Positions 1 to 64,000 of a stretch of 64,000 nucleotides of DNA are shown here, in pieces. The stretch covers positions 1 through 64,000 of IMG/VR virus record IMGVR_UViG_3300021599_001018; one strand, given 5' to 3'. The notes under the pieces were generated by a model. It was given only the letters and a program-made list of their open reading frames with translations, was not told the DNA's origin and searched no databases. Origin of the DNA: a virus. The translations under genes were made by a program, and so were the position numbers. How positions within the stretch are numbered: position 1 is the first letter of the stretch; the number at the start of each line of letters is the position of its first letter.

Positions 1-92
1 TATAGAGAAGGGTATTCATTAACCAACTATAAAAATAATAAATCCTATATGAATAGGATATTTAGAAATAAATATATAATTTTTTTAGAAAA

Positions 93-281
93 CTAAATAA
101 ATTTATTATTTATTTTATTTTTTCTTTTAGCTTCTTCCGAAACTAATCGTTTTTGTACTGAGGGCTTTACATAAGTCTGCCTTCCTCTCAACTCTTCTAT
201 CTGTTTTACGTTTTGTACTTTCTTTTTATACGATTTCAAAGCACCCTCTATGTTGCCGTTCTTAATTTCTATAATCAGCAT
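93..281 (-). CDS. rpsU: Phage-encoded ribosomal protein bS21
   Basis: 62-aa basic protein; MLIIEIKNGNIEGALKSYKKK...ELRGRQTYVKPSVQKR matches the Bacteroidota-type bS21 pattern (IxxALKxYKxK, LRxR, Y/FxKPS). Confidence 0.92.
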   Translation of the reverse strand: MLIIEIKNGNIEGALKSYKKKVQNVKQIEELRGRQTYVKPSVQKRLVSEEAKRKNKINNKFI

Positions 282-284
282 AGT

Positions 285-818
285 TTATACTTTGAAATAG
301 ATTTCTTCGTAGTGTAATATATCTAATAGATTTGTTGGGTCAATTATTTGTGCAGCGTTTAATAGGTCAGAGTATTCTGCTACCGATTTGGTTTGTCCCT
401 GTCTTAATTCTTGTAGAAAATCAAATGTTGCCAAATCATGCTGGAATATTTTTTGAGAAGTTTCGTTGTATTTTTCAAATAGTCCAAACTCTAATGCATA
501 GGCTTTGTTTACAATATCAATAAGTCCAGCGAATTGAATGTTTAGCTTTACTGCTGGCATTGTTGGAGTTATGTTCCAATCTACCATATAGTTTTGTAGT
601 AATTCGGCGTGTGTTAATTCATTTACTGCTTCTTGTGCAAAAAATGCAGCTGCGTTATTATACCCAACACCTTTACAAAAGTTACTTGCGTTTCTGTAAA
701 AAAAGTGTGCGGTATATTCATCGTGTAACCTTTCGTTTAACAATGCTACAGTAGCACTGCCTAATATCTTAGGATTTATTGCTTTTGCCATTGTTAATGC
801 TTTAATGTTCGTTGCCAT
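285..818 (-). CDS. Ferritin-like di-iron protein
   Basis: LNERLHDEYTAHFFY...FFAQEAVNELTHAELL: ferritin helix A/B pattern with ExxH; 177 aa. Confidence 0.85.
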   Translation of the reverse strand: MATNIKALTMAKAINPKILGSATVALLNERLHDEYTAHFFYRNASNFCKGVGYNNAAAFFAQEAVNELTHAELLQNYMVDWNITPTMPAVKLNIQFAGLIDIVNKAYALEFGLFEKYNETSQKIFQHDLATFDFLQELRQGQTKSVAEYSDLLNAAQIIDPTNLLDILHYEEIYFKV

Positions 819-1766: not shown

Positions 1767-2357
1767 TTAGTTTAATTCGATTAGTATTTCTCTCATAAGG
1801 TCTTGTGCTTTACACCATTTTCCACATTCTTCTGCGATTTGCTGCCACTGTTTTGATTCATTTATTGGTGCCATAAATGCTCCATGCGTCGATGGGTTAG
1901 AAACAAAGTCCCAAGCAATAAGGTCAAAATCTTCCTGAACTATTACAGTCCCATCCGACATTTCTTTTACTGAACCTACGCCTCTACTGCTTATTCCAAG
2001 TCTTATATTATTTTTAAGTAATTCCCTTAATATATTTCCAGATGGAGTTGAAAGTATTTCTACTTTACCCATAACATCATCACCTTCCCACCAAATATCA
2101 ACTATATTATGTGATACATTTTTAAGATTAACAACAGGGGAGTCAGGATGGTCTAATTCACCCAAAGCCCTTCTTTCTCTAATTAGTTGTTCGTACTTCA
2201 TACATTCTCTTTTGAGAACATCTTTTGGATAACGTCTTTTATTTTGATTAGGAGCACCGCTTCTTTGTAGGATTCCCTGAACTATAAGAGTCCCATTAGA
2301 CTCTTCTTTAATTTTAGCCTCAAATAAATGTGTTTCTATAAGTAATGCTTTATTCAT
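1767..2357 (-). CDS. Prohead core protein protease (T4 gp21-like)
   Basis: NQNKRRYP, ALGELDHP, NVSH, GISSRGVGS, DFVSNPS motifs. Confidence 0.95.
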   Translation of the reverse strand: MNKALLIETHLFEAKIKEESNGTLIVQGILQRSGAPNQNKRRYPKDVLKRECMKYEQLIRERRALGELDHPDSPVVNLKNVSHNIVDIWWEGDDVMGKVEILSTPSGNILRELLKNNIRLGISSRGVGSVKEMSDGTVIVQEDFDLIAWDFVSNPSTHGAFMAPINESKQWQQIAEECGKWCKAQDLMREILIELN

Positions 2358-2737
2358 TATTTTACATCATTTTTTACTTTTGAAATAACCTGATTCATAG
2401 TAGATGAATCACTCCATGCTTTGAAAAATATATTTTTTAGTTCAGTTTCAATTTCTTTTTTATTACCATCTTTTCCAAGTTGTCTATCTATCGTTGATTG
2501 AACCATTTGCATTTTTACAATTTTACCTGCCGTAGTAGTATCAATTCCACGCTTTGGATCAACCATTTTAGATACATCAGAAATAAATGCCCTATTATTA
2601 GATAATTGTTCTAAAATAGATTCTAAATGTTTTTTATTTTCTGATTTTTGATTTACATATTTTGATATTTTTTCTACCAATGTTGCAAACCAATAAAATA
2701 TAATTTTACCCAATAAGATTGTAGCTATCGTTACCAA
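2357..2737 (-). CDS. Hypothetical protein with N-terminal hydrophobic helix; no ATG start (possible frameshift product)
   Basis: Frame open from 2767; only TTG start at 2737; see findings. Confidence 0.6.
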   Translation of the reverse strand: MVTIATILLGKIIFYWFATLVEKISKYVNQKSENKKHLESILEQLSNNRAFISDVSKMVDPKRGIDTTTAGKIVKMQMVQSTIDRQLGKDGNKKEIETELKNIFFKAWSDSSTMNQVISKVKNDVK

Positions 2738-21042: not shown

Positions 21043-24000
21043 TTAGATAAAACGAATTATTGATTTTACCGTCCAAATTCCAGCGCCCGTTTGATTCCCT
21101 TGTATCAATAAGTTTCCGCCAGATATAGAACCACTAAATGTTAATGCTGTTGTATTTCCGAAGTCGGTTGTAGAATTATCCGTATAATTAACGCTACCTT
21201 CGTTCCATATTCCCATAAATTGTCCTGCTCTTGCATTTGCTCCGGATTTTGCAGAGTATTCCATAAATACAGCATCGTATGAAGCAGTTGGTACACTATA
21301 TATTTGGAAAGTACCTGCTCCAGCGGTTACAGTTCGACGTGTATCGTTTAGAGATATTGCGGAGCTAGTACCAAATGATAGAGATCCGGTAATAATTTGG
21401 TCACCACGGAATGTGTTACTTCCGGTTGTAGCGAAAGATGCAGTCTGATTATTGATTACAAAACTACCCGTCTGTGAGTTTAGTACAAATGAACTTGTCT
21501 GGCTATTAGTTACAAAACTACTTGTCTGTGAGTTAGTTACAAAGCTTGAAGTTTGAGAGTTTGTAACAAACGAACCGGTTTGCGTATTTGTAATAAATGA
21601 CCCAGTCTGACTATTAGTTACAAAAGAGCCAGTCTGCGAATTAGTTACAAAGCTTGAAGTTTGTGAGTTTAATACAAAAGAGCTAGTCTGCGAATTAGTT
21701 ACAAATTGAGAAGTATCAATAGAACTACCGCCAAGTCCGGCAGATGATGTGTAACTTACTAACCCACTTGCCGTATCATATGTTAATACAAATCCCGTAT
21801 TATTTATAGAAGCTCCACTTAAATATAAAGTAGATGATACTATCAATCCAGTCGAACCACTTATCGTTAATCCATCTGCTTTTAATGTAGTTCCATCGTA
21901 AGTTAGTTTTGAAACACCCGCAAAAGCACCTGCGTTATTATATTGTATTTGTCCCGTAGTTCCACCAGGCATAGCAGAACCACCACCCAATGCTGCCGAT
22001 GATGTATATGTAACCAAACCGGTTGTATTATCATAAGTCAATACATGCCCAGTACCATTTGATATATTTGCTCCGCTTAAATACAATGAGCCCGATATTT
22101 GGAATTGCGAACCTGATGCAAATAATAAATTACTTCTGTTTGAGTTATTTAGACCATTACCTATAATAAATGCCCCAATACCAGTAGTCGCTCTATTAAA
22201 TTGCCCAATTACTGATTGATAATCGCCTATTGCTACCGTCTGTCTACCGGCAGTATGTGAGTATGTTCCGGATGCTATTGTAAAATATCCTTCCGCGTGT
22301 GAATAATCTCCATACGCAATACTAGCTAATCCTTCAGCATGCGAAGCTTCTCCGATTGCTTCCGTATTATCCCCTTCAGCATGCGATGATGACCCAATTG
22401 CTTTTGCACCAAATCCTTCTACATGTGAGTAATTTCCAGATGATATTGTATCACGACCTTCTGCATGTGAATATATCCCACTTGCTGTTACAGCGAGTCC
22501 TTGCTGAAAACTTTGACTTGTATATATAAATCTAAAGGAATCAGTTGCTCCAAATTGGCTTCCACTATTGTATTGAATGAATGTGTCCGATGGTGACGGA
22601 GTTCCTACACCACCCCCACCAAATCCAGCCGAAGAAGTATAACTAACTAAACCACTTGCAGTATTATATGTTAATACGAAACCGGTATTGTTTACGACTG
22701 CTCCGCTCAAATATAAAGATGCGGATATAATTTGTTCACCCCTGAAAGTATTACTTCCTGTTGTTGCAAATGAACCCGTTTGATTATTCGTTACGAAACT
22801 ACTCGTCTGTGAGTTTAATACAAAAGAGCTAGTCTGCGAATTGGTTACGAAGCTCGAAGTTTGTGAGTTAGTTACAAATGATGATGTATCTATATTACTT
22901 CCGGTGGGTATTGTAATATTACCGGAACTATCCGCTGCTACACCATTTACTCTTAAAACGAATGTTCCATTTGCATTTGGTAGGTAATGATATTTTAAGC
23001 CGCCCCCTAATTGCGAACCATCTATTACAGATCCAGTACTAGATAATCCTCCTCCACCAATACGAATTGCTGCTGTATTATTACCATTTTCATATACATA
23101 AAAATACGGATTTGGGTTTGATGAATTTTGAAATGTAATTCCAGAATCAGTTGTTCTAATTTGTGCATATGAAGTATTTGCTCCATCAAATATATCAATC
23201 CCTTTATCACTTCCACTAATAACTATCGTATTAACAGATGAACTTCCAACATTTGTTACTTGCTCTAATGATGGTATCGGTGCCCAGCTTGCTGATGTTG
23301 CGAAAGATGCACTATTTGCAAATGAAGCGGATATTGCTACCGATGCCGATTGTGCCCAACTTGCAGTTCCAAATAAAGAACCCGTTATACCATTTGAAAC
23401 TGATAGTGTTCCTGATATTGTAGTAGATCCTGTGACTTGTAAACTACCGGTCGCAACGGTCGTTCCTATAAGTCTCTGAATATCATCCGGTGTATTTCCA
23501 AAAGTATTTGAGCCAGTAGATACCGCATTTACTACTTGTATATTTTCATAAATTATATTAGTAAACGATGCAGTACCTAATACATTCAAAGATCCAGTTA
23601 TGGTTACTCCGCTACCGCTTACAACCAAAGAGCCGGTTATTACGGCATTACCATTAAACGGAAATGTACTGCCACCACTACCCAATGATGCCGTTGAAAT
23701 ATAACTTAGTTGGCCGGAAGATGAATCGTATGCAACAATATGTGATGCGGATTGGCTAACTAAACTTCTTAATCTAACCGACCCGCTTACATCAAAATTA
23801 CTTTGAGGATTTACTACATTTATACCTATTTTACCATCGGTTGAACCGCTTGATATTGTTGTTGTAGAAAAATATGATCCAGTTCCAAATATAATTCCAC
23901 CTATGTTTATAGAATCACGTCTATTCGGTTCCAATGTTACAGCAGTACCAATAATTATGTTATTTCTACCTACACTGCCGGCAGTAGAAACACCATCAGT

Positions 24001-24954
24001 ACCCGAATTATGTCCTATTATTGTTGAATAGCTTGCGCTTATGGCAAATCTACCCGCCCTAAGCCCAATAAATGTTGAACCAATTAAATTTCCGCTTGAA
24101 TTACCAGCATTAAATCCTATAAAATGACTATAAGATGCGCTACTATTTACGCCCACACTTTCACCTATAAAAATAGATCTAAAAGTTCCATCTGCATATT
24201 GACCGGCTTGTTTTCCTATAAAAATAGTTGAAATACTAGTTGGTGTGTTTATATTTAATCCCGCTTGTGAACCAAGCATTATGTTATCATTAGGATTAAC
24301 ATTATAAGCCGTACTACCCAATATATTTGAACCATAACTATATAAAGTAGATCCCGTAAGCGCTATCGGATATGATGATGTTAAAGCTGTAATTGCATTT
24401 GTAATAGACCCACTAAAAAATGATGCAGTTAATGCATTTGTGGCCCAACTTGCTGTACCTATTAAATTACCATTAAATGATCCAGAAAATGCACCTGAAT
24501 TTAATAAAAATGAACTACTAGTAGAATTTCCTCTAAATAATTGTAAATTTCCATTATCGTATGATGCCGATACATATGCATTTGGAGTAAATGATGCGGT
24601 TTGAACCGATCCGGTTATGCCTTGTTGAATCGTTAATGAACCCGAAATTATTTGCGTACTTCCTACGCTACCGGTTGTAATATAGCTACCAAGTTCTGAT
24701 TCAAATGCTAATTCTTTCCAATTTCCCGTATTATTCCAATTAGCGCTTGACGTGGTAGCGCCATAAAACGCATAATACTTTTGCGTGCTACTAACAAATA
24801 TAATAGTGCCTGTTTTTCTTTTTGGTTCAGGTATACTACTGCCAGTTTGAGATAAATTTGTAAGTGTAATAGCATTACCCCGTATATCACTTATATCGGC
24901 AATAGGATAATTTGGATTATTGTTTTCTAGTCTATCTGGAAAATATAGTGGCAT
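21043..24954 (-). CDS. Fibre protein with FIGxxAG, SHAEG and nonad repeats
   Basis: 1303 aa, Ser/Thr/Gly-rich, shares modules with the two downstream fibres. Confidence 0.8.
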   Translation of the reverse strand: MPLYFPDRLENNNPNYPIADISDIRGNAITLTNLSQTGSSIPEPKRKTGTIIFVSSTQKYYAFYGATTSSANWNNTGNWKELAFESELGSYITTGSVGSTQIISGSLTIQQGITGSVQTASFTPNAYVSASYDNGNLQLFRGNSTSSSFLLNSGAFSGSFNGNLIGTASWATNALTASFFSGSITNAITALTSSYPIALTGSTLYSYGSNILGSTAYNVNPNDNIMLGSQAGLNINTPTSISTIFIGKQAGQYADGTFRSIFIGESVGVNSSASYSHFIGFNAGNSSGNLIGSTFIGLRAGRFAISASYSTIIGHNSGTDGVSTAGSVGRNNIIIGTAVTLEPNRRDSINIGGIIFGTGSYFSTTTISSGSTDGKIGINVVNPQSNFDVSGSVRLRSLVSQSASHIVAYDSSSGQLSYISTASLGSGGSTFPFNGNAVITGSLVVSGSGVTITGSLNVLGTASFTNIIYENIQVVNAVSTGSNTFGNTPDDIQRLIGTTVATGSLQVTGSTTISGTLSVSNGITGSLFGTASWAQSASVAISASFANSASFATSASWAPIPSLEQVTNVGSSSVNTIVISGSDKGIDIFDGANTSYAQIRTTDSGITFQNSSNPNPYFYVYENGNNTAAIRIGGGGLSSTGSVIDGSQLGGGLKYHYLPNANGTFVLRVNGVAADSSGNITIPTGSNIDTSSFVTNSQTSSFVTNSQTSSFVLNSQTSSFVTNNQTGSFATTGSNTFRGEQIISASLYLSGAVVNNTGFVLTYNTASGLVSYTSSAGFGGGGVGTPSPSDTFIQYNSGSQFGATDSFRFIYTSQSFQQGLAVTASGIYSHAEGRDTISSGNYSHVEGFGAKAIGSSSHAEGDNTEAIGEASHAEGLASIAYGDYSHAEGYFTIASGTYSHTAGRQTVAIGDYQSVIGQFNRATTGIGAFIIGNGLNNSNRSNLLFASGSQFQISGSLYLSGANISNGTGHVLTYDNTTGLVTYTSSAALGGGSAMPGGTTGQIQYNNAGAFAGVSKLTYDGTTLKADGLTISGSTGLIVSSTLYLSGASINNTGFVLTYDTASGLVSYTSSAGLGGSSIDTSQFVTNSQTSSFVLNSQTSSFVTNSQTGSFVTNSQTGSFITNTQTGSFVTNSQTSSFVTNSQTSSFVTNSQTSSFVLNSQTGSFVINNQTASFATTGSNTFRGDQIITGSLSFGTSSAISLNDTRRTVTAGAGTFQIYSVPTASYDAVFMEYSAKSGANARAGQFMGIWNEGSVNYTDNSTTDFGNTTALTFSGSISGGNLLIQGNQTGAGIWTVKSIIRFI

Positions 24955-31268: not shown

Positions 31269-34200
31269 TTATTCGTAGAAAATTCCAAGTATCTGATTTA
31301 GAGGTGCGAATGTGCCTGTAAGTTTAAATTCAAGAACATCAGCACCAACTCCTAAAAAGATTTCTTCAAATGGTTTTACATTATCTTTTTGTTGTTTTAT
31401 TACATTTACTTTATCATTATCATCTGCCCACTTTTTTAATTCAGGGTTTGATATGGTGTTAATCTTAAATGATTTATCACCAAATGCCCAACGTCTAACT
31501 AAAGCCTCTTTTGTTATTTTATCAACTTTAACCGGTGCTTTAGTATCTATGAAATTTTCCCACCAACTTTGATGATATACTGAAACGGTATCACTATCAG
31601 ATAAACCAAACTTGCTTTGTAATTTAGATAGTTTAGAAAGATATTTGCCCTTTTTAGAACTTAACTCTTTACTTTTTGGAATTTCAGTTACGGGTGGTCC
31701 TTGAATTGTATATTTTGATTGAACATCTGCATTTACTTGCTTAATCATTCCGGCTAAGGTTCTAGCTGCCGTTTGGTCAGCTGCTATTGCTTTACCCGTT
31801 TCATCATAGCAAGTCGTATTATGGAATATAAGTAACGATTGACCATACGGAATTACATTTACAGATGTAGGCCATATAACTTCAAGGTTCATAAAACATT
31901 TACCATTTTGGAATATTTTTTCTTTTTGTTTTTCGGATAATCCACCGATTGCTACTGTCAAATCACGCATTGCGAAATTGTATGCATCGGTAAGTCCGCC
32001 TCTATTTGCGAATTTAGTTGCAACATCTTCTATTCCCATTGCGCTTGCTCCGGCATTTGCAAGATGTCCTTTGTTACGAGCTGCAATCAATCTTCCATTT
32101 TTCCAGCTTATTGCCAATGCCTGCCCATCCGTTTTCTCTCTAACTATACCAAGTTCACCATCTAATGCTTTACCAATAATATCTTTAAGGTCGCCAAAAG
32201 TTAAATTCATATCATCGAATGGATGCGACATGTGTCCATATGCACCACCTTCCATAATTAGTTGCTTTGTTTCCTCCATATTTTCTTTTATCATATTCGG
32301 CGCAGTATAATTGAATATATTAACTTGCGTACCGACTGCTGGGGGCGGTTTATATGCTTGTGGACGTGAATTAAATGGGTACATTTCCCATTTAATTTTT
32401 TTATCAATCTCATATTCAATACCTTTAACAGGATGAATCCATCTTTTACCTGGTCCGTTTTCTTCAGAAGGGTTTCTTGATGGCATTACGACACCATTCT
32501 TTTTTTGTGGATAATGATCTGATGTGTGGCTGTGTACTGTGAATCCTACTATTTCTGCGTGCGTTTTTGCCCTATCATCAAATCTTTCCCATTTATCCGT
32601 ATATGGTGAACGAAAACTTTGGTCATTTTGCATACTACCCACTATATAGTTTCCTTCGTTTATAGTACGAAATGTAGTTGCTTGCTTACCATTTATAGTT
32701 GGCATTCCATGTTTATCACTACCTATATCCTTTACCGTTACACGTTTGTTTTTGAACTTACCCATTAGAACTTCATCGCCTGGATTTACTGGAACATTTA
32801 TATCTTCTGCCGTTTCATCATCTACCCAAGGGCCTGCGTTTGGTCCTACCCAACCACCCGCTTCGGAATGTTCATTGAATGGGCTTATTTTCAATTCATC
32901 TTCTAATTCTTTAATCTCATCATAATCAAGCTCCATTAGGGCTTTAACTATTTCTTTTGATTTTGCGAATTTGTTACCGGTAACTACATATGCTATTTTT
33001 TGTTTTTCTTTTGCACTCCCATCTCTCCAATACTGAAATATATTTTTGAAATGAATATCATTTCTACTCATTTCGTTTATTATTTTGGTTTTTTCAGGGT
33101 TTTTGGTGAATTTAGTCGGCTCACCGGTCATTCTAGGTACATTTTTAGTAACATACTTAACGATAATTTGGTTAGCATCATCATCTCCTAAAATTTGGTC
33201 CGCTTCGGGAAACTCTAATTGAATATATCCCCCATTATGAAACCAATGGTCTGAAAGATTAACACCATCATTTGCGCCCAATTTTCTTTTTGCGCCTTTT
33301 GGTAAATATGCACCATCTGGTCTATCACTATCGGAAACGGATAATCTACTCACCTCTGATATTATTGCTCCTTCTGCGTAAATTTGTTTATTCTTTTTAC
33401 CATAATCACGAAGTAATATACCGGCAACTGCGTTAGCTTGGTTTTCAACGGGTGAGCCAGTTTTACCGGCCTCAGCTGAGTTTCCTACTAATCCCATTTC
33501 ATCTTGCTTTCTATGTACTAACTCATGTGCTATTGTACGGCAAATATCAGCAGTCATTCGTTTAGGAACAACAACCACTATATCCTTTGTTTCAGGACTA
33601 TATCCACCAAGAGATGAATTTTGTTCAGCATATTGTCTTCCTAATAATAATTTTACTTTTGGTTTATTTTTTAGTTTAAGTCTTTCCGTTGAATACTTTA
33701 CAAAATCTGCTATGTTTTCAACTTTTGATTTTGATATAGCTTCTTCTTTTAATAAATCAGAAGCGTTAGAAGTTGCTTTTAATTTTGGTTCTTCTTTTTT
33801 GTATCTTTTTATAGCATCAATTATTTGTTTATCGGATAACTTATAATTTTTAATAGTCTCAATAGTTTTTGCTATATAATTTTGCATAAACTTTTTACTA
33901 TCAATTTTATCATTTCCGGTTATTTCAAATATACCAGCTGCTCCCAGTGCAATTCCACCAGCAGAGGCTTGTAATCCGCTAGCTCCTAAACTTTCAAACG
34001 CGGAATGTTTTACTATATCTTTTGCAAGATAACTGCCAAAATGTCCTCCTCCAAATTTATAAGCAATTTTTGCTCCAGCTCCTTTTAATACACCACCAAC
34101 TCCAGCGCCTTTAGCTGCTGCGGAAGCTCCACCCATTATACCACCTGTTACTGCGATTGAACCAACTAACAGTGCCGTTTCTTTTGCTAATCCAACTAAT

Positions 34201-35924
34201 CCTTTCTTTTGTTTTTTACTTGCTTCCCAAGATTTTTCAAAAAGCTTTTTTTCTTCGTGTGGTAGTGCACCTGTATCTGAAAATACGGGTTTTTTCTCTG
34301 TTTTTGGTCTACCTTTTTTATCCGTATCTTGTACAGGATTTCCCTTATCATCTTTAACCGTATGGCCGTGCTTATCTTTTTTGAAAACCGGCACATCTTC
34401 CATAACAGCTTTTCCTTTTGAATCTTTTTTAGCAAAATCAGACCAATGAGCATCTCTACCCTTTTCATCTTTAACAGATCCAATTTTACCAGTTGTAGCT
34501 AAAGATTTAACAGCGCTAAAACTATCACCAATCATTTCTTTCTTATGGTGTAACATATGTTTAACTCCGTTTCCAAGTGCTTTAGCTCCGCTTTTTAATT
34601 TATCCATCAATCCCTTTCTTTCGGGAGATTTTGGATTATTTAATGAATCAATTGCCTTACTATCTTCGCTACTCAAATTAGACTTTTCTTTATCTAATTG
34701 TTGCTTTATATCCGATTCGTGCTTTTCTTGAGGCGTTTGTTCGGCCGCTGATTTTAATTCAGATCCGCTTAATTTATTTGGTTCAGGTTTATTAGCGCCG
34801 GCTTCGGGTTCTTTACCACCTTTTTCCGTTTCACCTTTTTCATCGCCTTCTTTACTTTTTTCTCCTTCGGGCTTTTCTTTTTTTGCCGTTGGTTCAGGTT
34901 TTTCCTGGCCAATCATTTTTTTAGCTTCTATATGAGCTGGGTGGTCTTTTTTTAATCTTAATGCATCTCTAACTTTTATTTTACCATCACTACCATCGGC
35001 TTTTTTATAACTTATTTCCTTATCCATTACAGGATTTTCTGCTTCGCCAAAATAGCTTTCTATAAATTCATTAAATACCTCTTCGGTTACTATATTTGAT
35101 ATAATTTCTGCAATAGGATTGTAAACATATTTTTTATGAGAATCTTCATCATCCTTTTTATGTAACTTTTTACTTAATTTAGATACATCTTTTGGGTCGG
35201 GTGCTCCACCTATATATCCTTGAGGCGAAACCAATCCTACAAATGCTCCACCTGGCAATCCTTCTTCAACTTCTTCATCATCGGATTTTTTAACAGGTGA
35301 TGGACCGAAATCGCCGGCCATACCTGTTCCTCTTAATGCGCCATATTCATTAAGTCCTTTTATCTTTTTTGTTATCATGTCAAATATCTTCTGATTAAAT
35401 TTTGGATAAGCAACTAAAAAGAATTTCTTAGCTTTTTCAATATCATCACTTCCTAAATTATTACGAACATCTGTACCGCTTATCGGGTTTGGTTCCGGTG
35501 GTACTGCATACACATATCCAATTTCGTCATACCCGTACCCCGATTTACCCTTGTACGGCTTAAAGTATTTTCCTTGAAGCCTATCCGAATCCTTCTCACC
35601 AACAGCTGCGATATATTGTGTTGTTTGTCCATCGAATTTTTTAAGTATTTCGGTTGGTTGATATGGGTTACGAATTTGTACAAACTTATCATCAGGTATA
35701 CCAAACATTGTGGTTACAATCTTCTTCTTTTCGGAAAAGTTAAAGGGAGACTTAGTTCCACTTGTATCATTTGAAGTTCCTATATAAACATTGCCAGCAC
35801 CAAACTTACTTACAAGTTTTTTATAAGATGCATAATGTCCTCTATGAAATGGTTGAAAGCGACCAGAATATACTACTACTGTTTTTGTCACTTTGGGTTT
35901 ATCTACTTCGTTTAATAAATTCAT
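31269..35924 (-). CDS. Multidomain protein: HxGH nucleotidyltransferase + HExxH domain + KxDG ligase-like domain
   Basis: GRFQPFHRGH...ISGT; IAHELVHRKQ; GHMSHPFD...EKTDG. Confidence 0.75.
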   Translation of the reverse strand: MNLLNEVDKPKVTKTVVVYSGRFQPFHRGHYASYKKLVSKFGAGNVYIGTSNDTSGTKSPFNFSEKKKIVTTMFGIPDDKFVQIRNPYQPTEILKKFDGQTTQYIAAVGEKDSDRLQGKYFKPYKGKSGYGYDEIGYVYAVPPEPNPISGTDVRNNLGSDDIEKAKKFFLVAYPKFNQKIFDMITKKIKGLNEYGALRGTGMAGDFGPSPVKKSDDEEVEEGLPGGAFVGLVSPQGYIGGAPDPKDVSKLSKKLHKKDDEDSHKKYVYNPIAEIISNIVTEEVFNEFIESYFGEAENPVMDKEISYKKADGSDGKIKVRDALRLKKDHPAHIEAKKMIGQEKPEPTAKKEKPEGEKSKEGDEKGETEKGGKEPEAGANKPEPNKLSGSELKSAAEQTPQEKHESDIKQQLDKEKSNLSSEDSKAIDSLNNPKSPERKGLMDKLKSGAKALGNGVKHMLHHKKEMIGDSFSAVKSLATTGKIGSVKDEKGRDAHWSDFAKKDSKGKAVMEDVPVFKKDKHGHTVKDDKGNPVQDTDKKGRPKTEKKPVFSDTGALPHEEKKLFEKSWEASKKQKKGLVGLAKETALLVGSIAVTGGIMGGASAAAKGAGVGGVLKGAGAKIAYKFGGGHFGSYLAKDIVKHSAFESLGASGLQASAGGIALGAAGIFEITGNDKIDSKKFMQNYIAKTIETIKNYKLSDKQIIDAIKRYKKEEPKLKATSNASDLLKEEAISKSKVENIADFVKYSTERLKLKNKPKVKLLLGRQYAEQNSSLGGYSPETKDIVVVVPKRMTADICRTIAHELVHRKQDEMGLVGNSAEAGKTGSPVENQANAVAGILLRDYGKKNKQIYAEGAIISEVSRLSVSDSDRPDGAYLPKGAKRKLGANDGVNLSDHWFHNGGYIQLEFPEADQILGDDDANQIIVKYVTKNVPRMTGEPTKFTKNPEKTKIINEMSRNDIHFKNIFQYWRDGSAKEKQKIAYVVTGNKFAKSKEIVKALMELDYDEIKELEDELKISPFNEHSEAGGWVGPNAGPWVDDETAEDINVPVNPGDEVLMGKFKNKRVTVKDIGSDKHGMPTINGKQATTFRTINEGNYIVGSMQNDQSFRSPYTDKWERFDDRAKTHAEIVGFTVHSHTSDHYPQKKNGVVMPSRNPSEENGPGKRWIHPVKGIEYEIDKKIKWEMYPFNSRPQAYKPPPAVGTQVNIFNYTAPNMIKENMEETKQLIMEGGAYGHMSHPFDDMNLTFGDLKDIIGKALDGELGIVREKTDGQALAISWKNGRLIAARNKGHLANAGASAMGIEDVATKFANRGGLTDAYNFAMRDLTVAIGGLSEKQKEKIFQNGKCFMNLEVIWPTSVNVIPYGQSLLIFHNTTCYDETGKAIAADQTAARTLAGMIKQVNADVQSKYTIQGPPVTEIPKSKELSSKKGKYLSKLSKLQSKFGLSDSDTVSVYHQSWWENFIDTKAPVKVDKITKEALVRRWAFGDKSFKINTISNPELKKWADDNDKVNVIKQQKDNVKPFEEIFLGVGADVLEFKLTGTFAPLNQILGIFYE

Positions 35925-47926: not shown

Positions 47927-50900
47927 TTATCCATCACTTTCAATAATTGGTTCTGTACTTGTTCTGCCTGGAAGAACCTTAATACTATTAGGATTACTGA
48001 TAAACGATTCAATAGGAGAAGAACCATCTAATGTAGTTGCTGCTGTGTTTTTTGAACCTTTGTAATATGAATTTTGCAAACCAGTTGTTAAATCTCCAAC
48101 ATATTTATAATGCGTTGGTAAATATCCATCGGGAGCACGCTCAACAGCTATAACACTACCTGAAATTGGTGGCGGTGGAGAGATTATACCACCTAAAAAT
48201 GAACTTGTTAGTGGTTGTATTACTAGTTTTTTATTTATCCAACTACGCTGTGCTTCTACTAGTTGACTTCTAATATCCTCTACTGAAGTTTGATACGATT
48301 CCCCACCATATGTACCCGTAACCCCTACAGCTTCGGCATATTTTAAGTAAGTTTCAACCTCAGCCTCATACACAAGCCATACATTTATTCTTTCTTTTTT
48401 TACAGTTCCATCGGTTGAGAAATAAGTTCTTATTGCACTACCACTTTGTATATAAATACTAAATCCTATATCTTGATATGGGTCAAAATCTAATAGTTTA
48501 TTAGTTTCATAATTAACTATTTGCTTAGTAGTTGTTGGAAAATTTAATCCAGCATCAATAATGGTTTCATATTGATTATTTTGGCCCGTTGCTTCTATTT
48601 CGGAATTTGTATCAATGCTTGAATTAAGTTGATTATTTTCACCTATTGGTGTAATTAAATTTACATCAATAATTGATTCAAATTGATTATTTTCACCAGA
48701 TGGTTCTATATTATCTATATCCAATACCTTTTCAAATTGATTATTTTCGGCAATTAAAGTTGAATCAGATTTTATTTCGGTTTCATTATAATACTCATCG
48801 CCTGTCGGTTTTGAGTGTTTATATTTACTTCTTTCTAAAAAGTGGGGTTCAACTAACAATCCGGTAGTGGCCTTTGTTCTAGCTGGCAACATTTGTTTAA
48901 TATCATCAAACATAGCTTTTTCATATGATTTAATGATATTGATGTATTCGTAAATATCTTTATTCTTTGTACGCTCAAAGTAATAATTTTTGAGTGTATT
49001 TAGTTCACTATAAGAATCTTCATATAAATCCCACGGATTACCAACATAATCATCTAAATTGTTAGAACCCAATGATTTTGCAATATCAAAATTTAATTCT
49101 TTGGTTGGCGATACAAACACACCAACTCTATTGGAATCTATTGGTGCATACTCATATGACTTTAATGTAGACCTAGTATTAACGGATAGGTCTGATACCA
49201 ATGATTGCGAAGAAAATCTAACTTTATTTGTAGAATATCGAGATGCTCCCAGGCTTGGAATTTCTAAAACTGAATTTCTATCTATTAACTCAAATTGATA
49301 TGGATAAGATACTACTGATGTGAATCCAGATAATGATGCTGAAAATGATGCGGACGGATTTGTTGAACGCATTGATGATATTGAAACGATACCATCTTCA
49401 TAATCGTTTCTTCTAAATGATGCCGAATAATAATTAGTCGGAGCAACATTTATTAGTTTATTTGTAGTAGTAACATTTTTAGGATATTCAAAATCAAGTC
49501 GGAAATGTAAATCGGTAGTAGAAGAAGATATATGATTACCATTTATCATTTCTGGATAATAACAATGTTCTTCAAATCTACTACGGCTTAGAGGTGTAGA
49601 CCATACACGGATTTCATCAATACTACCAGAAAATCCATATCCAATGGCCTCATTTGCACTATTTCCAAAAAACATATCATCGCTTAGATTCCAATAACTA
49701 CTTCCGGTTGTATATATTTTTGAACTATATGAAGAAAATATTTCTCTATCTTTTTCGGTTTGTAAAACATTTAATTCCGTTATTTGATTAGAACCCGTAA
49801 GTGTTCTTGAAACTTCTATACCAAAATATCTATCATTGAAAATTGGTAATAAAGATGAGCTAATTACATTTGCGGTATTATCTGTAAGAATAACTTTACC
49901 ATACTTACTATTAACAGATCCGCTTATTTCAAGAAAAAATCTAGTACCATCACTAAAAATACCCCATTGCCCACTATAAGCCGGCTTTACAAATAATTCT
50001 ATTGTATCTGGCTTTCTGTTTTGATTTGTATTTGACCAAGGTATAGCTATATAACCAGTTGTATCAAATTTTAGTGCATAACTAATATCTTCAACTAATA
50101 ATTTACTAATAGTTTCTTCGGTTTGTTCAGGTCCCCCAAATTCTATTATTGAAAGATTTGATGATGGAATACCATAACATGCCATTAAAGCATGAATACC
50201 ACGTCTTGTACCTTTATGTTTTAGTAGATATGGCAGATTATTTACAATTCTTCTCCAAACTTCATTAGTTCTTTCCTTAACAGGAGATGTAACTTTTTGA
50301 TTACCATTACTATCTTCACCATATACATAGTCCCAAATTTGAGCACCTGAACCTAAATTTTTTGCATCCCAATTAAATGATTTTAAGAAATCATATAATA
50401 GTTTATCAGATGCTCCACTTCTGTTTTTATAACCCAACCCTCTATTTCTCTCTATAGCTTTTGTGTAAAAATATAGTATATCAAAGTGATGTCCAATCAT
50501 TGAAAAGAACAATAAGAAATTGGTATTTTCCGTATTAGTAGAAATATATTGCGGTATGTTTGCAATTATGTAATTTGGATTCTGAGAATCATATGCTATT
50601 GTTTCATCTATTATTTTTTCATACCATTTAATTGATTGTTGGTTTGTTGTTTTTAACCTAACAGATGAACTATATGGCCAAGTTATAGATGAACTTGTCT
50701 CTGTTGTATATAAAGATGATGATGTATATAAAAATGTTTCAAACCCATCAAACCCCTGTATTAAAGCAGATTTTTTAGATTGTTGTCTTTCAACTTCTTT
50801 TTGTGAAGCAAAAGATCCAGTCCAAGTGGCATTACCACCACCAGTAAAATCGGTTGATGCACTAACTATTAGGTCTTCATAATGCTCTATTAACTGTAAT

Positions 50901-53317
50901 TTATATACGAAATTTTTTACTCTTTCTTCTGCGGAACTAAAATGTACAAAATTTTCCCATTGATAATCGGCAGTTCCTTCTGATATAGAACCATTTGCAT
51001 ATTCTATATTCAAATCTTCAAGCGTTATATTTGAACCACTTAAAAATTGTTGAACTAATTTTGTAGAACTAGATGAACTTAATATAAGATTATCTAATGA
51101 TTCATAATTTGTAGATTGTCCTTTTACAAAATCAATATCTACATCAAAATTGGGCCCTTTTATAAATGGAGATTCTTTATCATCTTGCTCATTTAATACA
51201 ACCGTTTCTATTAACGGATTTGTTACTAATCTTGTAATCCAAATTGTGTCCCTAGCAGATACTGTAGCTGGTAATGGTGAATATAGTTTAAGAATTACAG
51301 ATTTTACTTCTTTTGTAACTTTTTGATTACCTAATTCATCTTCTGTTTTTTCCGATAAAGTCCAATTATCTTCTTCATACGAAGATATTAAAACTCTTTC
51401 ACCATTATCTAAATTTAATAAATGAGTAAGATATTTACTTTCTTTTTCGGGTTCATCTATTTTTAGATTTTCAGCAAAAGCATCATAAACTGCTTTTGTT
51501 ATTATAGTTTCATCTAATCTAACAGATGGATATTTAATTAAGGTTTTGATTACATATTCATTACCTATTAGTTCTTGTGAACCGCCACGATTGTAGGGCT
51601 TAATTATTAAGGTAACATTATCGCTACCATTCCATTGAGGATAATTTTTAGGTAATTCCTTTAAGTTTATTTTAATCTTATTATCAGTAGGAGCATTTTT
51701 GTATAAAGTTACTCTTGTTTTATCTTTAAGTAATAAATCAATATCAACGGATGTAGCTGCCGTTGCTTTATACATTACCTCATATTCTATATTCGAGTCT
51801 GAAAAAGATGGTATATCAATTTCTCTCGGAGCGGTTGTTTGAACAATGCTTGGAAAATCATCTATTGATTGGAAATTGATTAAAGCATTTAGAGTGTTAC
51901 TAATAGTTTTATCAGCATTATTGTTTGCCGTAAACCTAACATTTCTAACTCCAAATTTAGAATCAAAATCTTTTCTAAATCTTAATGTTATGGATTTATT
52001 TGATGCGTTTAGTGTAAATTTTTTACCATTATCTAAAAATACATCAACTGAATCCGCATCTGTTGTATTAAATGGTATTGTAACGGTTTTATCTTCATCG
52101 GAATCCTTAACCTCAACAGTAAATACATTATTTGATAACGATACTGTTGGTATAATCTTTTGTATTTCTTTATCAAATACAACATACACCGTCAATTCGC
52201 TTGATAGTAAACTAGCCGGCATATCAAATGACGGAGCTACTTTAGTCCATTTTGAAAAATCTACTTCTTCAAATTTATCTACATTTACAGGTCTGTTTGT
52301 ATAATATATTCCGTTAATTGTATAATTTCCTGGTATATTACCATCTACTCTAAATTTGAAAATAGAATTGTTTAGTAAATCACTTGAAAATTCCTCAGTT
52401 GGGTCATTTCCGCCAAAATCAAGATTTGTTTTGCCTTGCTTTATTAAAAAACCATCTTTATCAACTAGATCATACGATAGTGCGACTTTATTTCCTAAAT
52501 CCGAAGCATAATTACTATCAAAATTTATTTTACAAGCCGTTTTTTTAGTTGGAGGTAAATCTACCCTTACATCATCTTTTGGTTTGAATGAAAAATCTAA
52601 GTTTAGAACAACAGTCTGATAACCCGTCCACAGCCCCAATCCAGTACGTCTTCTTAAATCATAACTTTTTTCGCCTTTTAATTTATATACATTATTTACA
52701 TCAAGCTCATATTCTTTAACTAAAACAACCTCAGAAAATCTTGTTTGTAATGCATTATCATTATTTCCTCCAAACTTTAATTGAAAATTATTCGTATTTT
52801 TAATAGATTCATTTCTTTGATTTCTTATATCTTCTGGTCTAGATATATTTCCACCCCTATCATCTTCATCAGCAACTTCTCTAATGTTTTTTACAGTTCT
52901 ATGTTTTTTTTGAATACTTACTTCGTAGTAGTTTTTAGCCGTTTTACCGTTAGTTGTTACTTTATAAATCTTTGTTTGGCCAAAACTTTGCCTACCATAA
53001 CTCTTTACAGCAGTTTGTCCATATGATAAAATTGTATCATCTTCTAAAAAAGAAACGGGTTCCGAAGTGGAAAGAGATATTTTGATAATTCCATTTCCAA
53101 AAAAACTTGGTGGAACATATGTTGGATTTGGTGGAACGGGTGCTACATATCCGCCGCCTCCCGATCCTCCTGAAAATTTACCATCATCTACCGAAAGATA
53201 AGTAGTAGACCCTTGTGGGCCTGGAAAGGGATTATATGTACCCTGACCTCCCCAACTACTAAAGTTTTCGGCCTGATTGTCTTGCCGTGCGCTATCGCTA
53301 TTTATCCCTCTACTCAT
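47927..53317 (-). CDS. Large baseplate wedge-like protein with LamG-like domain
   Basis: NLPYLLKHKGTRRGI (tail protein I/gp7-like), FSGSIDEIRVW (LamG). Confidence 0.7.
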   Translation of the reverse strand: MSRGINSDSARQDNQAENFSSWGGQGTYNPFPGPQGSTTYLSVDDGKFSGGSGGGGYVAPVPPNPTYVPPSFFGNGIIKISLSTSEPVSFLEDDTILSYGQTAVKSYGRQSFGQTKIYKVTTNGKTAKNYYEVSIQKKHRTVKNIREVADEDDRGGNISRPEDIRNQRNESIKNTNNFQLKFGGNNDNALQTRFSEVVLVKEYELDVNNVYKLKGEKSYDLRRRTGLGLWTGYQTVVLNLDFSFKPKDDVRVDLPPTKKTACKINFDSNYASDLGNKVALSYDLVDKDGFLIKQGKTNLDFGGNDPTEEFSSDLLNNSIFKFRVDGNIPGNYTINGIYYTNRPVNVDKFEEVDFSKWTKVAPSFDMPASLLSSELTVYVVFDKEIQKIIPTVSLSNNVFTVEVKDSDEDKTVTIPFNTTDADSVDVFLDNGKKFTLNASNKSITLRFRKDFDSKFGVRNVRFTANNNADKTISNTLNALINFQSIDDFPSIVQTTAPREIDIPSFSDSNIEYEVMYKATAATSVDIDLLLKDKTRVTLYKNAPTDNKIKINLKELPKNYPQWNGSDNVTLIIKPYNRGGSQELIGNEYVIKTLIKYPSVRLDETIITKAVYDAFAENLKIDEPEKESKYLTHLLNLDNGERVLISSYEEDNWTLSEKTEDELGNQKVTKEVKSVILKLYSPLPATVSARDTIWITRLVTNPLIETVVLNEQDDKESPFIKGPNFDVDIDFVKGQSTNYESLDNLILSSSSSTKLVQQFLSGSNITLEDLNIEYANGSISEGTADYQWENFVHFSSAEERVKNFVYKLQLIEHYEDLIVSASTDFTGGGNATWTGSFASQKEVERQQSKKSALIQGFDGFETFLYTSSSLYTTETSSSITWPYSSSVRLKTTNQQSIKWYEKIIDETIAYDSQNPNYIIANIPQYISTNTENTNFLLFFSMIGHHFDILYFYTKAIERNRGLGYKNRSGASDKLLYDFLKSFNWDAKNLGSGAQIWDYVYGEDSNGNQKVTSPVKERTNEVWRRIVNNLPYLLKHKGTRRGIHALMACYGIPSSNLSIIEFGGPEQTEETISKLLVEDISYALKFDTTGYIAIPWSNTNQNRKPDTIELFVKPAYSGQWGIFSDGTRFFLEISGSVNSKYGKVILTDNTANVISSSLLPIFNDRYFGIEVSRTLTGSNQITELNVLQTEKDREIFSSYSSKIYTTGSSYWNLSDDMFFGNSANEAIGYGFSGSIDEIRVWSTPLSRSRFEEHCYYPEMINGNHISSSTTDLHFRLDFEYPKNVTTTNKLINVAPTNYYSASFRRNDYEDGIVSISSMRSTNPSASFSASLSGFTSVVSYPYQFELIDRNSVLEIPSLGASRYSTNKVRFSSQSLVSDLSVNTRSTLKSYEYAPIDSNRVGVFVSPTKELNFDIAKSLGSNNLDDYVGNPWDLYEDSYSELNTLKNYYFERTKNKDIYEYINIIKSYEKAMFDDIKQMLPARTKATTGLLVEPHFLERSKYKHSKPTGDEYYNETEIKSDSTLIAENNQFEKVLDIDNIEPSGENNQFESIIDVNLITPIGENNQLNSSIDTNSEIEATGQNNQYETIIDAGLNFPTTTKQIVNYETNKLLDFDPYQDIGFSIYIQSGSAIRTYFSTDGTVKKERINVWLVYEAEVETYLKYAEAVGVTGTYGGESYQTSVEDIRSQLVEAQRSWINKKLVIQPLTSSFLGGIISPPPPISGSVIAVERAPDGYLPTHYKYVGDLTTGLQNSYYKGSKNTAATTLDGSSPIESFISNPNSIKVLPGRTSTEPIIESDG

Positions 53318-62052: not shown

Positions 62053-62457
62053 TTATAGTTTCTTTTTTAAGTCTTCTATTTCAATTTCTATATCAGTCAA
62101 TTTTTCTCTATTCTTTTCCTCAACTTCGTTTATAGTATCTTCCATATCTGCGAGTAATTGCGCCTTTTCACTTTCACTTAACCAACCATCTTCACCAATA
62201 CCTTTGGCTTCGGCAGCGGCGAGACGTTGAGCAATAGTAGCAAGTTTAACAAGATGCTCATCGTTCTTTACCGATACTTCTATAAGGTCTTTGATTATAG
62301 GAGCAATTACAGTTGCCTCGCCTACATTACGAATAAGTTTGCGTAAAGACTCTATTAAGTCTGATATATTCTTTTTTTTGTTTTGCTGATTATCGTAAAT
62401 ATCCTTAAATAATGACGATAGGTTTTTACCATCAAACAGTTGAAATTCTGAACCCAT
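62053..62457 (-). CDS. Conserved helical phage protein
   Basis: 134 aa; VKNDEHLVKLATIAQR. Confidence 0.6.
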   Translation of the reverse strand: MGSEFQLFDGKNLSSLFKDIYDNQQNKKKNISDLIESLRKLIRNVGEATVIAPIIKDLIEVSVKNDEHLVKLATIAQRLAAAEAKGIGEDGWLSESEKAQLLADMEDTINEVEEKNREKLTDIEIEIEDLKKKL

Positions 62458-62499
62458 AAAATTATTTTTATATACTAATAACTATAAATCAAAGGAATT

Positions 62500-63192
62500 T
62501 TATATTTTTATATCACCCGTTTTATCATATTCCTCATATAATTCCATTTGCTTTTCTTTCATTTTATTTACTATCTTTGTAATATAGTGAGTAGGGTAGC
62601 CGGTCATTTCTCTAACTAAAAGATAAAGACCTTTTTTATTAAAGTTTTCAATATATTCTGCTCTACGGAATAATTCTAAAAGAGCATCTGCAATTTGTAA
62701 ATCACGTTTTTTAGTAAAGAAATTTTCAAGGTGTATATCCCAATAGGCAAGCATTCTGTTATTGAATGTTTTGAAATCATCATTTTTTACATCTTCTCTA
62801 AATGAATTTTCTTTATCCCAAGATTCGGGCATATTTGAAATAATATCTGTATCTTTGAATCTTTTGTAATTTGCATTATTATTTAGAATAAGATAATTTC
62901 TTGCTACGATTGTAAAATAAGAAAAGGCTTTACCTTTACTCTGGTCAGAATACATATGCATTTTTTCTACCATAAAGGCAACAACCTCAGCCATTACATC
63001 TTGTGGGTCATCATCGAAATATGTAAATTTCCATTTGTTATATACAATTTCTGCAAGTTTAGCAAAGGCAGATTGAATATGGTCTTTATATATCCTGTCT
63101 TTTAATAATTTATCTGTTGCTTTATTATACGCTATAATAGCATCTTCGGTTTCTTGGGTAAAGTACCTTTTTTGATTCTTTTTTCTTGGCAT
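62500..63192 (-). CDS. Putative late-transcription sigma factor (gp55-like)
   Basis: RYFT near N-terminus and KAFSYFTIVARNYLI, resembling sigma region 2 of gp55-type factors; no region 4. Confidence 0.7.
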   Translation of the reverse strand: MPRKKNQKRYFTQETEDAIIAYNKATDKLLKDRIYKDHIQSAFAKLAEIVYNKWKFTYFDDDPQDVMAEVVAFMVEKMHMYSDQSKGKAFSYFTIVARNYLILNNNANYKRFKDTDIISNMPESWDKENSFREDVKNDDFKTFNNRMLAYWDIHLENFFTKKRDLQIADALLELFRRAEYIENFNKKGLYLLVREMTGYPTHYITKIVNKMKEKQMELYEEYDKTGDIKI

Positions 63193-63193
63193 A

Positions 63194-63454
63194 TTATTTG
63201 TTTTTGAATCTTTCGATAGTTTCTTTTATTTGCTTAAATATAGAACCTACATCATCATCTTTCTCAAACATTTGACTTCTATCTATTTGTCGTAATGCCT
63301 CCAGTAATGCTTCGTTTCTTTTTAATTCGTCTTGAATAAATGTTTCATTACTATCTATCAAATCTTCATATTTTTCTAATTTTCTTAATAAATTAAAAGT
63401 TGAAAACCCTAGTAATAAATTTAATGCTATTGATATTATTATTGCTGTAATCAT
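63194..63454 (-). CDS. Small membrane-anchored coiled-coil protein
   Basis: N-terminal TM; FEKDDDVG motif. Confidence 0.6.
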   Translation of the reverse strand: MITAIIISIALNLLLGFSTFNLLRKLEKYEDLIDSNETFIQDELKRNEALLEALRQIDRSQMFEKDDDVGSIFKQIKETIERFKNK

Positions 63455-63456
63455 AA

Positions 63457-64000
63457 TTAAACTATTTCATATCCTTTTAGAAAAAACTCATTTGCTTTTT
63501 TGTATTTCACTTCAACTAATTCGCCATTCGGAGCTTTCATAATAATTTTCTCATTTCTACCATATTTTTGTTTATTTCTAATTGTGGTAGAATATACTCT
63601 ATCTTTAATTGTAAAACCATCCAAATGATCAATTTCGTGTTGAACTATTATCGTTTGTAAGGTTTCTTTTGAAACTTCATCTTTATCTCCTTCTTTATTT
63701 ACCTCAAATACTAATTCGCCCAAATTATCAGTTTGAACTGTAACTTTTGTGGAACGCAAAGTTTGTACCGGAGTATCTAATGTTTTTGGAATTGAAAGAC
63801 ATCCTTCATAAAAAACCATACCTTCTTCTCCACGTTTTGTAATAAACGGATTGATTAAAACTAGTGGTTCATCGTCCACATTGATAATACATGCACGTTT
63901 TTTAATTCCTAATTGAGTAGCTGCCAATCCAAGACCAGGATATTTTTGTAATCCCTCTTTTAATTGAAGAGTTATTTCATCAACCTCAGCTGTTGTAAAA
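63457..64000 (-). CDS. def: Peptide deformylase (5' end outside window)
   Basis: Frame open to window edge; GLGLAATQ, EGCLS, QHEIDHLDG motifs. Confidence 0.95.
   Translation of the reverse strand, partial: FTTAEVDEITLQLKEGLQKYPGLGLAATQLGIKKRACIINVDDEPLVLINPFITKRGEEGMVFYEGCLSIPKTLDTPVQTLRSTKVTVQTDNLGELVFEVNKEGDKDEVSKETLQTIIVQHEIDHLDGFTIKDRVYSTTIRNKQKYGRNEKIIMKAPNGELVEVKYKKANEFFLKGYEIV

Follow-up and report, generated by a model that had tools for sequence, protein, structure and literature searches.

In Escherichia coli, according to PMC12690207, the C-terminal helix of peptide deformylase (PDF) serves as the ribosome anchor of this enzyme and binds between uL22 and bL32. Phage deformylases rank, as stated in PMC5591237, among the most abundant auxiliary genes of marine viromes, and the viral PDFs described so far are presented in that source as having no ribosome-binding C-terminal region. 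E. coli SecA's C-terminal tail (CTT) is composed, in the account of PMC6620043, of a flexible linker plus a metal-binding domain (MBD); this MBD has SecB as well as 70S ribosomes among its binding partners, crosslinks to uL23 were obtained with a SUMO-CTT fusion, the residues conserved in the MBD are exposed and basic, and the MBD is retained in 52 species without SecB, its role in such bacteria being still open according to the same source, which speaks of "alternative CTTs" in general terms only. The 64,000-nt stretch of DNA analyzed here (the window) comprised bases 1-64000 of the IMG/VR virus record IMGVR_UViG_3300021599_001018, which was linear, 72,874 nt in length, and estimated to be 39% complete. 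It carried a PDF gene whose product combined a deformylase domain, predicted from its motifs to be catalytically intact, with a C-terminal mini-domain homologous to the SecA C-termini of a clade of Marinimicrobia (SAR406).

The PDF gene was a minus-strand open reading frame (ORF) of 209 aa, located at 1958..2587 of locus L001, which corresponded to 63457..64086 in window numbering; it was open at the window edge (in-window part 63457-63999, minus strand) and extended 86 nt beyond it. The C-terminal sequence of the product was ...RNKQKYGRNEKIIMKAPNGELVEVKYKKANEFFLKGYEIV, and the letters of this end as given in an earlier note on the window agreed exactly with the ORF translation. Pfam PF01327 spanned residues 28-166 (E 4.5e-24; 85.3 bits vs. 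a cut-off of 22.8), phrog_2890 ("peptide deformylase") matched at E 2.8e-22, and TIGR00079 scored 86.8 bits, which was under its equivalog cut-off of 103.95. The motifs G51-L-G-L-A-A-T-Q58, E94-G-C96-L-S98, and Q149-H-E-I-D-H154 were all present, and G51/G53/Q58, E94-G-C96-L-S, and Q149-H-E-I-D-H154 were invariant across 27 relatives. The AlphaFold2 (AF2) model, built from the 27-sequence alignment A1 (the first row of which was 1 residue off the window protein), had a mean predicted local distance difference test score (pLDDT) of 87; Foldseek with this model gave solved PDFs as the top matches (E 2.7e-10; target-normalised template modelling [TM] score 0.78), and the best PDB sequence match was the PDF of cyanophage S-SSM7 (3UWA; E 2.5e-19). 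Past a helix at residues 160-163, the model gave only coil, two strands, and an 8-residue helix, and profile matches to E. coli PDF stopped at query residue ~159.

From 8000 candidates scored, 7166 relatives of the PDF were obtained at E<=0.001; the best 120 of these 7166 were 209-215 aa in length and 61-100% identical, and each had 100% query coverage, so the tail is not a chance extension. The cultured-phage records contained 138 matches to the PDF, every one at <60% identity, and thus no close relative. Residues 167-209 of the PDF contained zero Cys and zero His, had no Pfam, PHROG, or NCBIfam match even at E<=10, and formed a tail whose net charge, read off the sequence, was strongly positive. 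Among 27 sequences sharing 61-85% identity, the mean majority fraction was 0.88 in the tail, 0.79 in the catalytic core, and 0.58 in the linker, and 15 tail columns were invariant (G176, R177, N178, K180, M183, K184, P186, K194, K196, A198, N199, G205, Y206, E207, and I208). The AF2 tail displayed strands at 180-184 and 190-194, a helix at 195-202, and a short strand at 207-208 (pLDDT 72-86), it was preceded by linker residues 168-171 with pLDDT <50 in the whole-protein model, and the tail modelled alone (46 residues) gave the same elements at pLDDT 72. On these models, the beta-beta-alpha tail is predicted to be an autonomously folding, portable 35-residue module. A word-index search for the tail in proteins of 367-2000 aa gave three candidates, none of which scored, with an index that misses SecAs sharing GRNEK/VKYKK.

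The relationship of this module to SecA was established by profile comparison. With a profile built from 12 PDF tails (A2), 62 proteins were found at E<=1e-3 among 1.84 billion (1.84e9) cluster representatives, and the matched stretch was C-terminal in 60/60 non-repeat matches; P0146 and P0175 were set aside as unrelated, internally repetitive proteins. These matches fell into four groups: (i) PDFs with intact motifs, (ii) PDF-like proteins with degenerate motifs, (iii) C-terminal fragments of SecA, which reached E 7e-8 in this search, and (iv) a few CobW_C or DUF2334 proteins. As for the identity of the SecA-type fragments, P0169 matched SecA_SW at E 1.2e-68, PF07516 was present in 4/6 fragments tested, and 13 fragments aligned to Marinimicrobia SecA past the tail, over 54-299 residues at 46-99% identity. 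Comparison of the PDF tails (A2) with 12 SecA-type tails (A3) by hhalign gave 99.0% probability (E 6.8e-18; 40 columns without gaps, 43% identity). When genomes of the phylum were queried with the PDF alone, the C-termini of SecA came up with 45-52% identity and per-genome E values from 3e-8 to 8e-7, whereas the phylum's own deformylases (~160-220 aa, <=42% identity) matched the PDF only to residue ~165-190 and had no tail. The window tail shared 41-62% ungapped identity (median 47%, 34 residues) with 80 SecA tails, and an ESM-Atlas structure search with residues 170-209 brought up, at TM 0.74-0.81, clusters of SecA_SW fragments and one cluster of CobW. The statement of the earlier note that the PDF ended in a SecA-tail-like domain was upheld by the hhalign match and by these genome matches.

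The Cys-free tail also ended proteins other than PDF and SecA, namely CobW_C (GTPase metallochaperone-like) and DUF2334 proteins, exemplified by P0164 (233 aa) and P0148 (113 aa); P0316, a member of the P0164 cluster, was 442 aa in length, and a further cellular case was found at G047:C2:57585-57698 on a 463-aa ORF. The CobW_C/DUF2334 tails were ~70% identical to the SecA tails of a small-genome Marinimicrobia group (L063-L078). Four additional entries, P0124, P0134, P0142, and P0170, had unrelated N-termini joined to a C-terminus of PDF or pseudo-PDF plus the tail, and the N-terminal parts seen in this set were the N-terminus of the 230-aa neighbor (see below), an RNase B OB domain, a cupin, and an impB/IMS domain; such fusions probably reflect chimeric assembly or frameshifts in gene calling and not new architectures.

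The distribution of the SecA-type tail was determined by a pattern scan of 185,579 species, each represented by one genome, in which 96 relatives were found. The 80 of these 96 that were analyzed were almost all titled Candidatus Marinimicrobia or Neomarinimicrobiota, and the remainder of the 80 were untitled "bacterium" metagenome-assembled genomes (MAGs), one "FCB group" genome, and one "Gammaproteobacteria" MAG. The tail was the end of a SecA-sized ORF in 80/80 genome loci (~1004-1136 aa where complete), and of 201 genomes sampled from the phylum, 51 had it, almost without exception on an ORF of 1007-1060 aa. Searching a database with this region of SecA gave 279 proteins; those with an organism name were all SecA of Marinimicrobia/Fidelibacterota, and PF02810 was listed in none of the 279. 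When PDF-type tail patterns were applied to the species-representative genomes, nine pattern matches and zero relatives were obtained; at the level of these patterns, none of these cellular genomes or their prophages had the phage-type tail. The earlier note had named Flavobacteriia as bearers of a similar Cys-free SecA end, and this taxon was not borne out, because every named tail-bearing SecA was labelled Marinimicrobia, Neomarinimicrobiota, or Fidelibacterota in a search outside which the Flavobacteriia genomes lay; one ESM-Atlas cluster, made up of SecA fragments whose end was structurally similar, was annotated "commonest Bacteroidota," the phylum being known for 8/127 members. Full-text literature searches found no paper on a Cys-free SecA tail, from Marinimicrobia or any other group, though a Marinimicrobia sequence may be part of the alignment given for SecA in PMC6620043 (source data of Figure 1), and none in which a phage deformylase bears a domain of SecA type.

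The sequence comparison was extended to the canonical zinc-binding SEC-C motif through the SecA proteins of the same phylum. In 5/5 tail-less genomes checked, SecA ended with K[IV]GRNDPC[HWP]CGSG[KR]KYK[KRH]C[HC]G; the zinc and Cys-free SecA ends followed the same H-x-E-S/T-x-G-M-G-F linker, and the orthologous SecAs carrying the one or the other end were 53-59% identical over ~350 aa. MAFFT paired the zinc and Cys-free forms column by column, with GRN[DE], the S-x-G turn, and K[YF]KK retained, while the four metal-ligand positions were occupied by I/L/L/Q in Cys-free SecA and by I181/M183/A198/N199 in the PDF, and the CxCx8C[HC] ligands were absent from the PDF tail. Compared to the zinc form, the Cys-free form had 2 + 4 more residues in the hairpin and ~10-12 residues (helix and strand) added at the end. 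The hhalign comparison of Cys-free SecA tails with nine canonical motifs of the phylum gave 80% probability and E 1.4e-5, covering the first 16 columns only. Because GRND and KYKK were kept while the four metal ligands were replaced in the alignment, the tail is interpreted as a metal-free descendant of SEC-C, common to Marinimicrobia SecA and the phage PDF. Two further claims of the earlier note thus found support: the proposed GRN...KYKK frame of the PDF was placed by MAFFT, through the SecA orthologues of one phylum, on the zinc SEC-C motif, and the designation as a Cys-free SEC-C derivative agreed with the shared position of the zinc and Cys-free forms in these orthologues. This designation is based on positional orthology within SecA plus the strong link between PDF tail and SecA tail, and not on a direct profile match. 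Canonical SEC-C persisted on other small proteins in 4/5 genomes with the Cys-free SecA tail, so this tail does not represent a genome-wide loss of the zinc motif.

Small proteins with canonical SEC-C were also observed at L082, L084, and L085 (Marinimicrobia genomes G001, G002, and G004). These proteins (121-193 aa) had an N-terminal canonical SEC-C, a hydrophobic segment, and a repeated "KVWSxEHGH[YW]HD" motif, and from this composition they look like membrane-anchored, histidine-rich metal-binding proteins.

Besides the active-form PDFs, a degenerate sister clade carried the same tail: 10/16 aligned tail-bearing sequences lacked the motif-2 Cys together with the two His and the Glu of motif 3, and QHEIDH of motif 3 was changed into QRLIDS, QRLIDA, or QRAIDA. 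Proteins of this degenerate form were P0127, P0141, P0145, P0149, P0152, P0153, P0159, P0160, and P0172. The IMG/VR scans gave at least 574 active-form relatives, 80 loci of which were analyzed, and 73 loci of the degenerate form (L204-L276). The active-form loci had the tail, the Cys motif, and HExxH within one ORF in 74/80 cases, and the pattern search detected no tail ORF in the remaining 6; the degenerate loci had an ORF with the tail but neither catalytic motif in 72/73 cases. Both sets occupied the same gene block (see below), which makes the degenerate proteins positional orthologues of the PDF, and as judged from their motifs, the sister-clade proteins are likely pseudo-deformylases. 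Conservation of the tail was 0.78 vs. 0.70 for the rest of the protein in the degenerate set (49 unique sequences) and 0.75 vs. 0.71 in the active set (67 sequences). These values are indicative of selection having retained the tail after the loss of catalysis in the sister clade.

The reading that we favor, and hold with somewhat better than even confidence, is that this protein is an intact PDF with a linker and a Marinimicrobia-SecA-homologous tail, the latter being a host-acquired tether that places the PDF at the site of the SecA MBD, most likely the ribosome exit. The proposed mechanism would proceed as follows: (i) a phage lineage would have acquired the SecA-tail module from a host protein; (ii) the linker and the beta-beta-alpha mini-domain would take the place of the usual C-terminal ribosome-anchoring helix; (iii) the module would tether the deformylase to the binding place of the SecA MBD, most probably a ribosomal site close to the exit port; (iv) with this tether, nascent chains would be preferentially accessible to the phage PDF or its dead orthologues; and (v) the tethered PDF might exclude host factors from the exit. 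The binding surface is probably unchanged among the zinc SecA, Cys-free SecA, and PDF forms, because the residues kept through all three are the exposed ones and not the ligands.

SAR406/Marinimicrobia is the leading host candidate for the phage, because the domain, on the cellular side, was found in Marinimicrobia proteins only. Evolution in place within SecA followed by phage capture is the simpler reading; the transfer may instead have run from phage to host. The large terminase, compared with 401 genomes of the phylum, matched in 8 genomes, mostly at 25-41% identity. One terminase-like stretch (G371:C3; 77-78 residues, 68-69%) was rejected as host evidence, because it was located at a contig edge in an ORF joined to UmuD, and no other ORF of the contig matched the window. 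This ORF (L198, G371:C3:1-20000; 3..665, minus strand) had a UmuD/LexA-like domain joined to the terminase-like stretch, possibly as an assembly chimera, and its setting was a 20.9-kb contig with 25-29% GC in a Marinimicrobia genome of ~1 Mb. There was no tRNA gene within the window, and literature searches returned no cultured SAR406 phage and nothing on a Marinimicrobia viral peptide deformylase.

Several points weigh against this reading of the tail, its docking, and its host. The tail model was only moderately confident (pLDDT 72), and the alignments were shallow (12-27 sequences, >=61% identical). PF02810 was absent from the tail, the whole PDF, and the entire virus record at E<=10, and hhalign of the PDF tail against the nine canonical SEC-C motifs gave 5.5% probability. 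The PDB sequence search with the tail profile found no SecA (the best match was uL6, E 0.28); Foldseek against PDB with the 46-residue tail model gave none at E<=1e-3 (best 3anw_B, E 0.5), and VIA-align with the tail model gave a best Z of 3.5 and, at Z 2-3, listed BRK domains, GINS, and small proteins of the ribosome; SecA was in neither list, the domain being too small for both structure searches. The similarity to SEC-C that the earlier note expected from profile and structure searches therefore stood in its transitive part, through the Marinimicrobia SecA tail, and failed in its direct profile part, in which there was no PF02810 match and the hhalign probability was low; the fold searches, with matches below significance, were uninformative. 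Docking of the PDF tail at the ribosome and competition at the exit tunnel, both proposed in the earlier note, are inferred; the isolated E. coli MBD, according to PMC6620043, binds ribosomes weakly and also functions in SecB binding and SecA autoinhibition, so that ribosome docking is just one known role of the MBD. Complex prediction of the PDF tail with Marinimicrobia uL23, run without controls, gave a score of 0.00 and speaks neither for nor against binding. With regard to the host, the closest phages in culture, as judged from the large terminase, are those of Flavobacterium (55%) and Microcystis (52%), and the 401 genomes of the phylum contained no convincing relative of the phage.

The alternative that survives best, unlikely in our judgment, is that the tail binds a nonribosomal partner, either a chaperone or receptor recognizing the Marinimicrobia SecA tail or anionic membrane lipids, and brings the PDF, or its dead orthologue, to the secretion machinery or the membrane in place of the exit tunnel. 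It draws on the several partners of the E. coli MBD (SecB, the SecA core, and the ribosome, as given in PMC6620043), on the strongly positive charge of the tail, on the small size and hydrophobic N-terminus of the conserved downstream neighbor, and on the Cys-free domain ending unrelated CobW_C and DUF2334 proteins, which suggests a general adaptor role; however, no candidate partner was identified, SecB was found in 3/201 genomes of the phylum and in 0/51 of the sampled tail-bearing genomes and is thus an unlikely partner of the tail, and the substrates of PDF are ribosome-bound nascent chains, which makes a ribosomal site the simplest target.

It is more improbable still that the tail is an intramolecular element with no docking role, which folds onto the catalytic domain and stabilizes or regulates it, a part played by the C-terminal strand in type 2 PDFs and by the final residue in Vp16 PDF. 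PMC5591237 describes how the active conformation of known PDFs can be locked by their C-terminal region, and the tail pLDDT was slightly higher in the whole model (up to 86) than alone (72), but the same fold was predicted for the tail alone, the linker was weakly conserved and had pLDDT <50, the tail also ended SecA, CobW_C, and DUF2334 proteins, and it was retained and conserved in orthologues with no catalytic residues to stabilize.

That the likeness to SecA and SEC-C arose by chance or by convergence in a short peptide rich in lysine, or is a gene-calling or assembly artefact, we judge to be already refuted: the domain has just 35 residues, neither PF02810 nor the canonical-motif profile matched the PDF tail, and a few database entries (P0124, P0142, and P0170) were obvious chimeras, but against these stand the ungapped hhalign match at E 6.8e-18, SecA-type fragments down to E 7e-8 against 1.84e9 proteins, single-sequence E values of ~3e-8 per genome, a continuous ORF in 74/80 and 72/73 independent viral loci, and the column-by-column pairing with the zinc form in SecA orthologues.

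A bolder version of the tether reading is put forward as possible though doubtful: a large uncultured lineage of T4-like phages would have taken the docking tail from the SecA of its SAR406/Marinimicrobia host and would park its PDF at the nascent-chain exit, the dead PDF of the sister clade would be an occupancy takeover factor, and the tail would be the first known metal-independent SecA MBD. If this were true, the dead PDFs would keep translating ribosomes closed to host SecA, or to some other factor of the exit site, and steer co-translational processing to phage proteins. Three matters can now be tested: (i) the surface of the SecA MBD (GRND...KYKK) as a zinc-independent, portable docking signal; (ii) competition of phages with host factors at the exit port, as suggested by the tail-bearing dead orthologues; and (iii) the tail as a host marker tying abundant uncultured large phages to SAR406.

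The features of the PDF gene and of its two downstream neighbors are collected in Table 1. The genes around the PDF constituted a T4-like myovirus set, including portal, large terminase, head protease, baseplate wedge, primase, and SbcCD-like nuclease. The 153 viral loci had a common block order, composed of a 227-aa coiled-coil/transmembrane protein, an ultraviolet (UV)-endonuclease-like gene, PDF, and 86-aa, 230-aa, and 134-aa proteins; the conserved block flanked the PDF and extended over window 62053-63454 and L001 2617-3899. We take the UV-endonuclease-like gene upstream of the PDF to be UvdE/UvsE-like, and its ORF held a masked stretch (X run) in the record. The 86-, 230-, and 134-aa proteins matched no known family. 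The 86-aa gene was directly downstream of the PDF on the same strand in 77/80 active and 65/73 degenerate loci, and the 230-aa gene was close downstream in 76/80 active and 70/73 degenerate loci. The window additionally contained four very large ORFs, at 11325-17600 (2091 aa), 21043-24954 (1303 aa), 31269-35924 (1551 aa), and 47927-53317 (1796 aa); two of the four shared phrog_25468 repeats, the 1551-aa protein opened with a cytidylyltransferase-like domain, and the 1796-aa protein had no PHROG match.

Table 1. Coordinates of the PDF gene, its parts, and its downstream neighbors in the window
Feature	Window coordinates	Strand	Basis
PDF stop codon TAA	63457..63459	-	ORF translation
C-terminal mini-domain, residues 175-209, YGRNEKIIMKAPNGELVEVKYKKANEFFLKGYEIV	63460..63564	-	AF2 model, hhalign, ungapped identity to SecA tails
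Linker, residues 167-174 (TTIRNKQK)	63565..63588	-	Low pLDDT, weak conservation
Catalytic deformylase domain, residues 30-166 in-window	63589..64000, gene on to 64086	-	PF01327, invariant motifs, Foldseek
86-aa small protein with hydrophobic N-terminal segment, start 2 nt past PDF stop	63194..63454	-	Conserved downstream neighbor
230-aa protein, next gene of conserved block	62500..63192	-	No significant family

The phage PDF was finally compared with the known systems closest to each of its parts. SEC-C (PF02810; residues 878-901 of E. coli SecA) and the PDF tail were both located at the extreme C-terminus after a flexible linker, and they had GRN[DE], K[YF]KK, and the central S/P-x-G turn in common; SEC-C too is appended to other proteins, with canonical examples in the same Marinimicrobia genomes. 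The PDF tail differed from SEC-C in having no Cys or His, a hairpin longer by 6 residues, ~10-12 extra residues, and no response to PF02810, and its carrier protein was a deformylase, unlike the SecA-borne SEC-C. The Cys-free SecA tail of Marinimicrobia and the PDF tail were of equal length with no gaps, and both were at the extreme C-terminus after a variable linker, but the former sat on a translocase ATPase of ~1010-1060 aa and the latter on a 209-aa phage enzyme, and the tail helix read KKLQxYLxxGY in Marinimicrobia SecA and KKANxFFLKGYEIV in the PDF.

Type 1B PDF, represented by E. coli Def, shared the catalytic fold and motifs with the phage PDF, but its long C-terminal alpha3 helix, which binds the ribosome beside uL22, had no predicted counterpart in the phage PDF, in which a linker and a beta-beta-alpha domain of other origin stood in for it; the C-terminal appendage of the phage PDF may likewise serve ribosome association. 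The PDFs of Vibrio phage Vp16 and cyanophage S-SSM7 (3UWA) are likewise phage-encoded deformylases, whereas the family found here, at 209-215 aa, differed from both in its extra domain; described phage PDFs are without a ribosome-binding region, whereas to the phage PDF of this window the tail of SecA, itself a factor active at the ribosome exit, appears to have contributed an extra domain.

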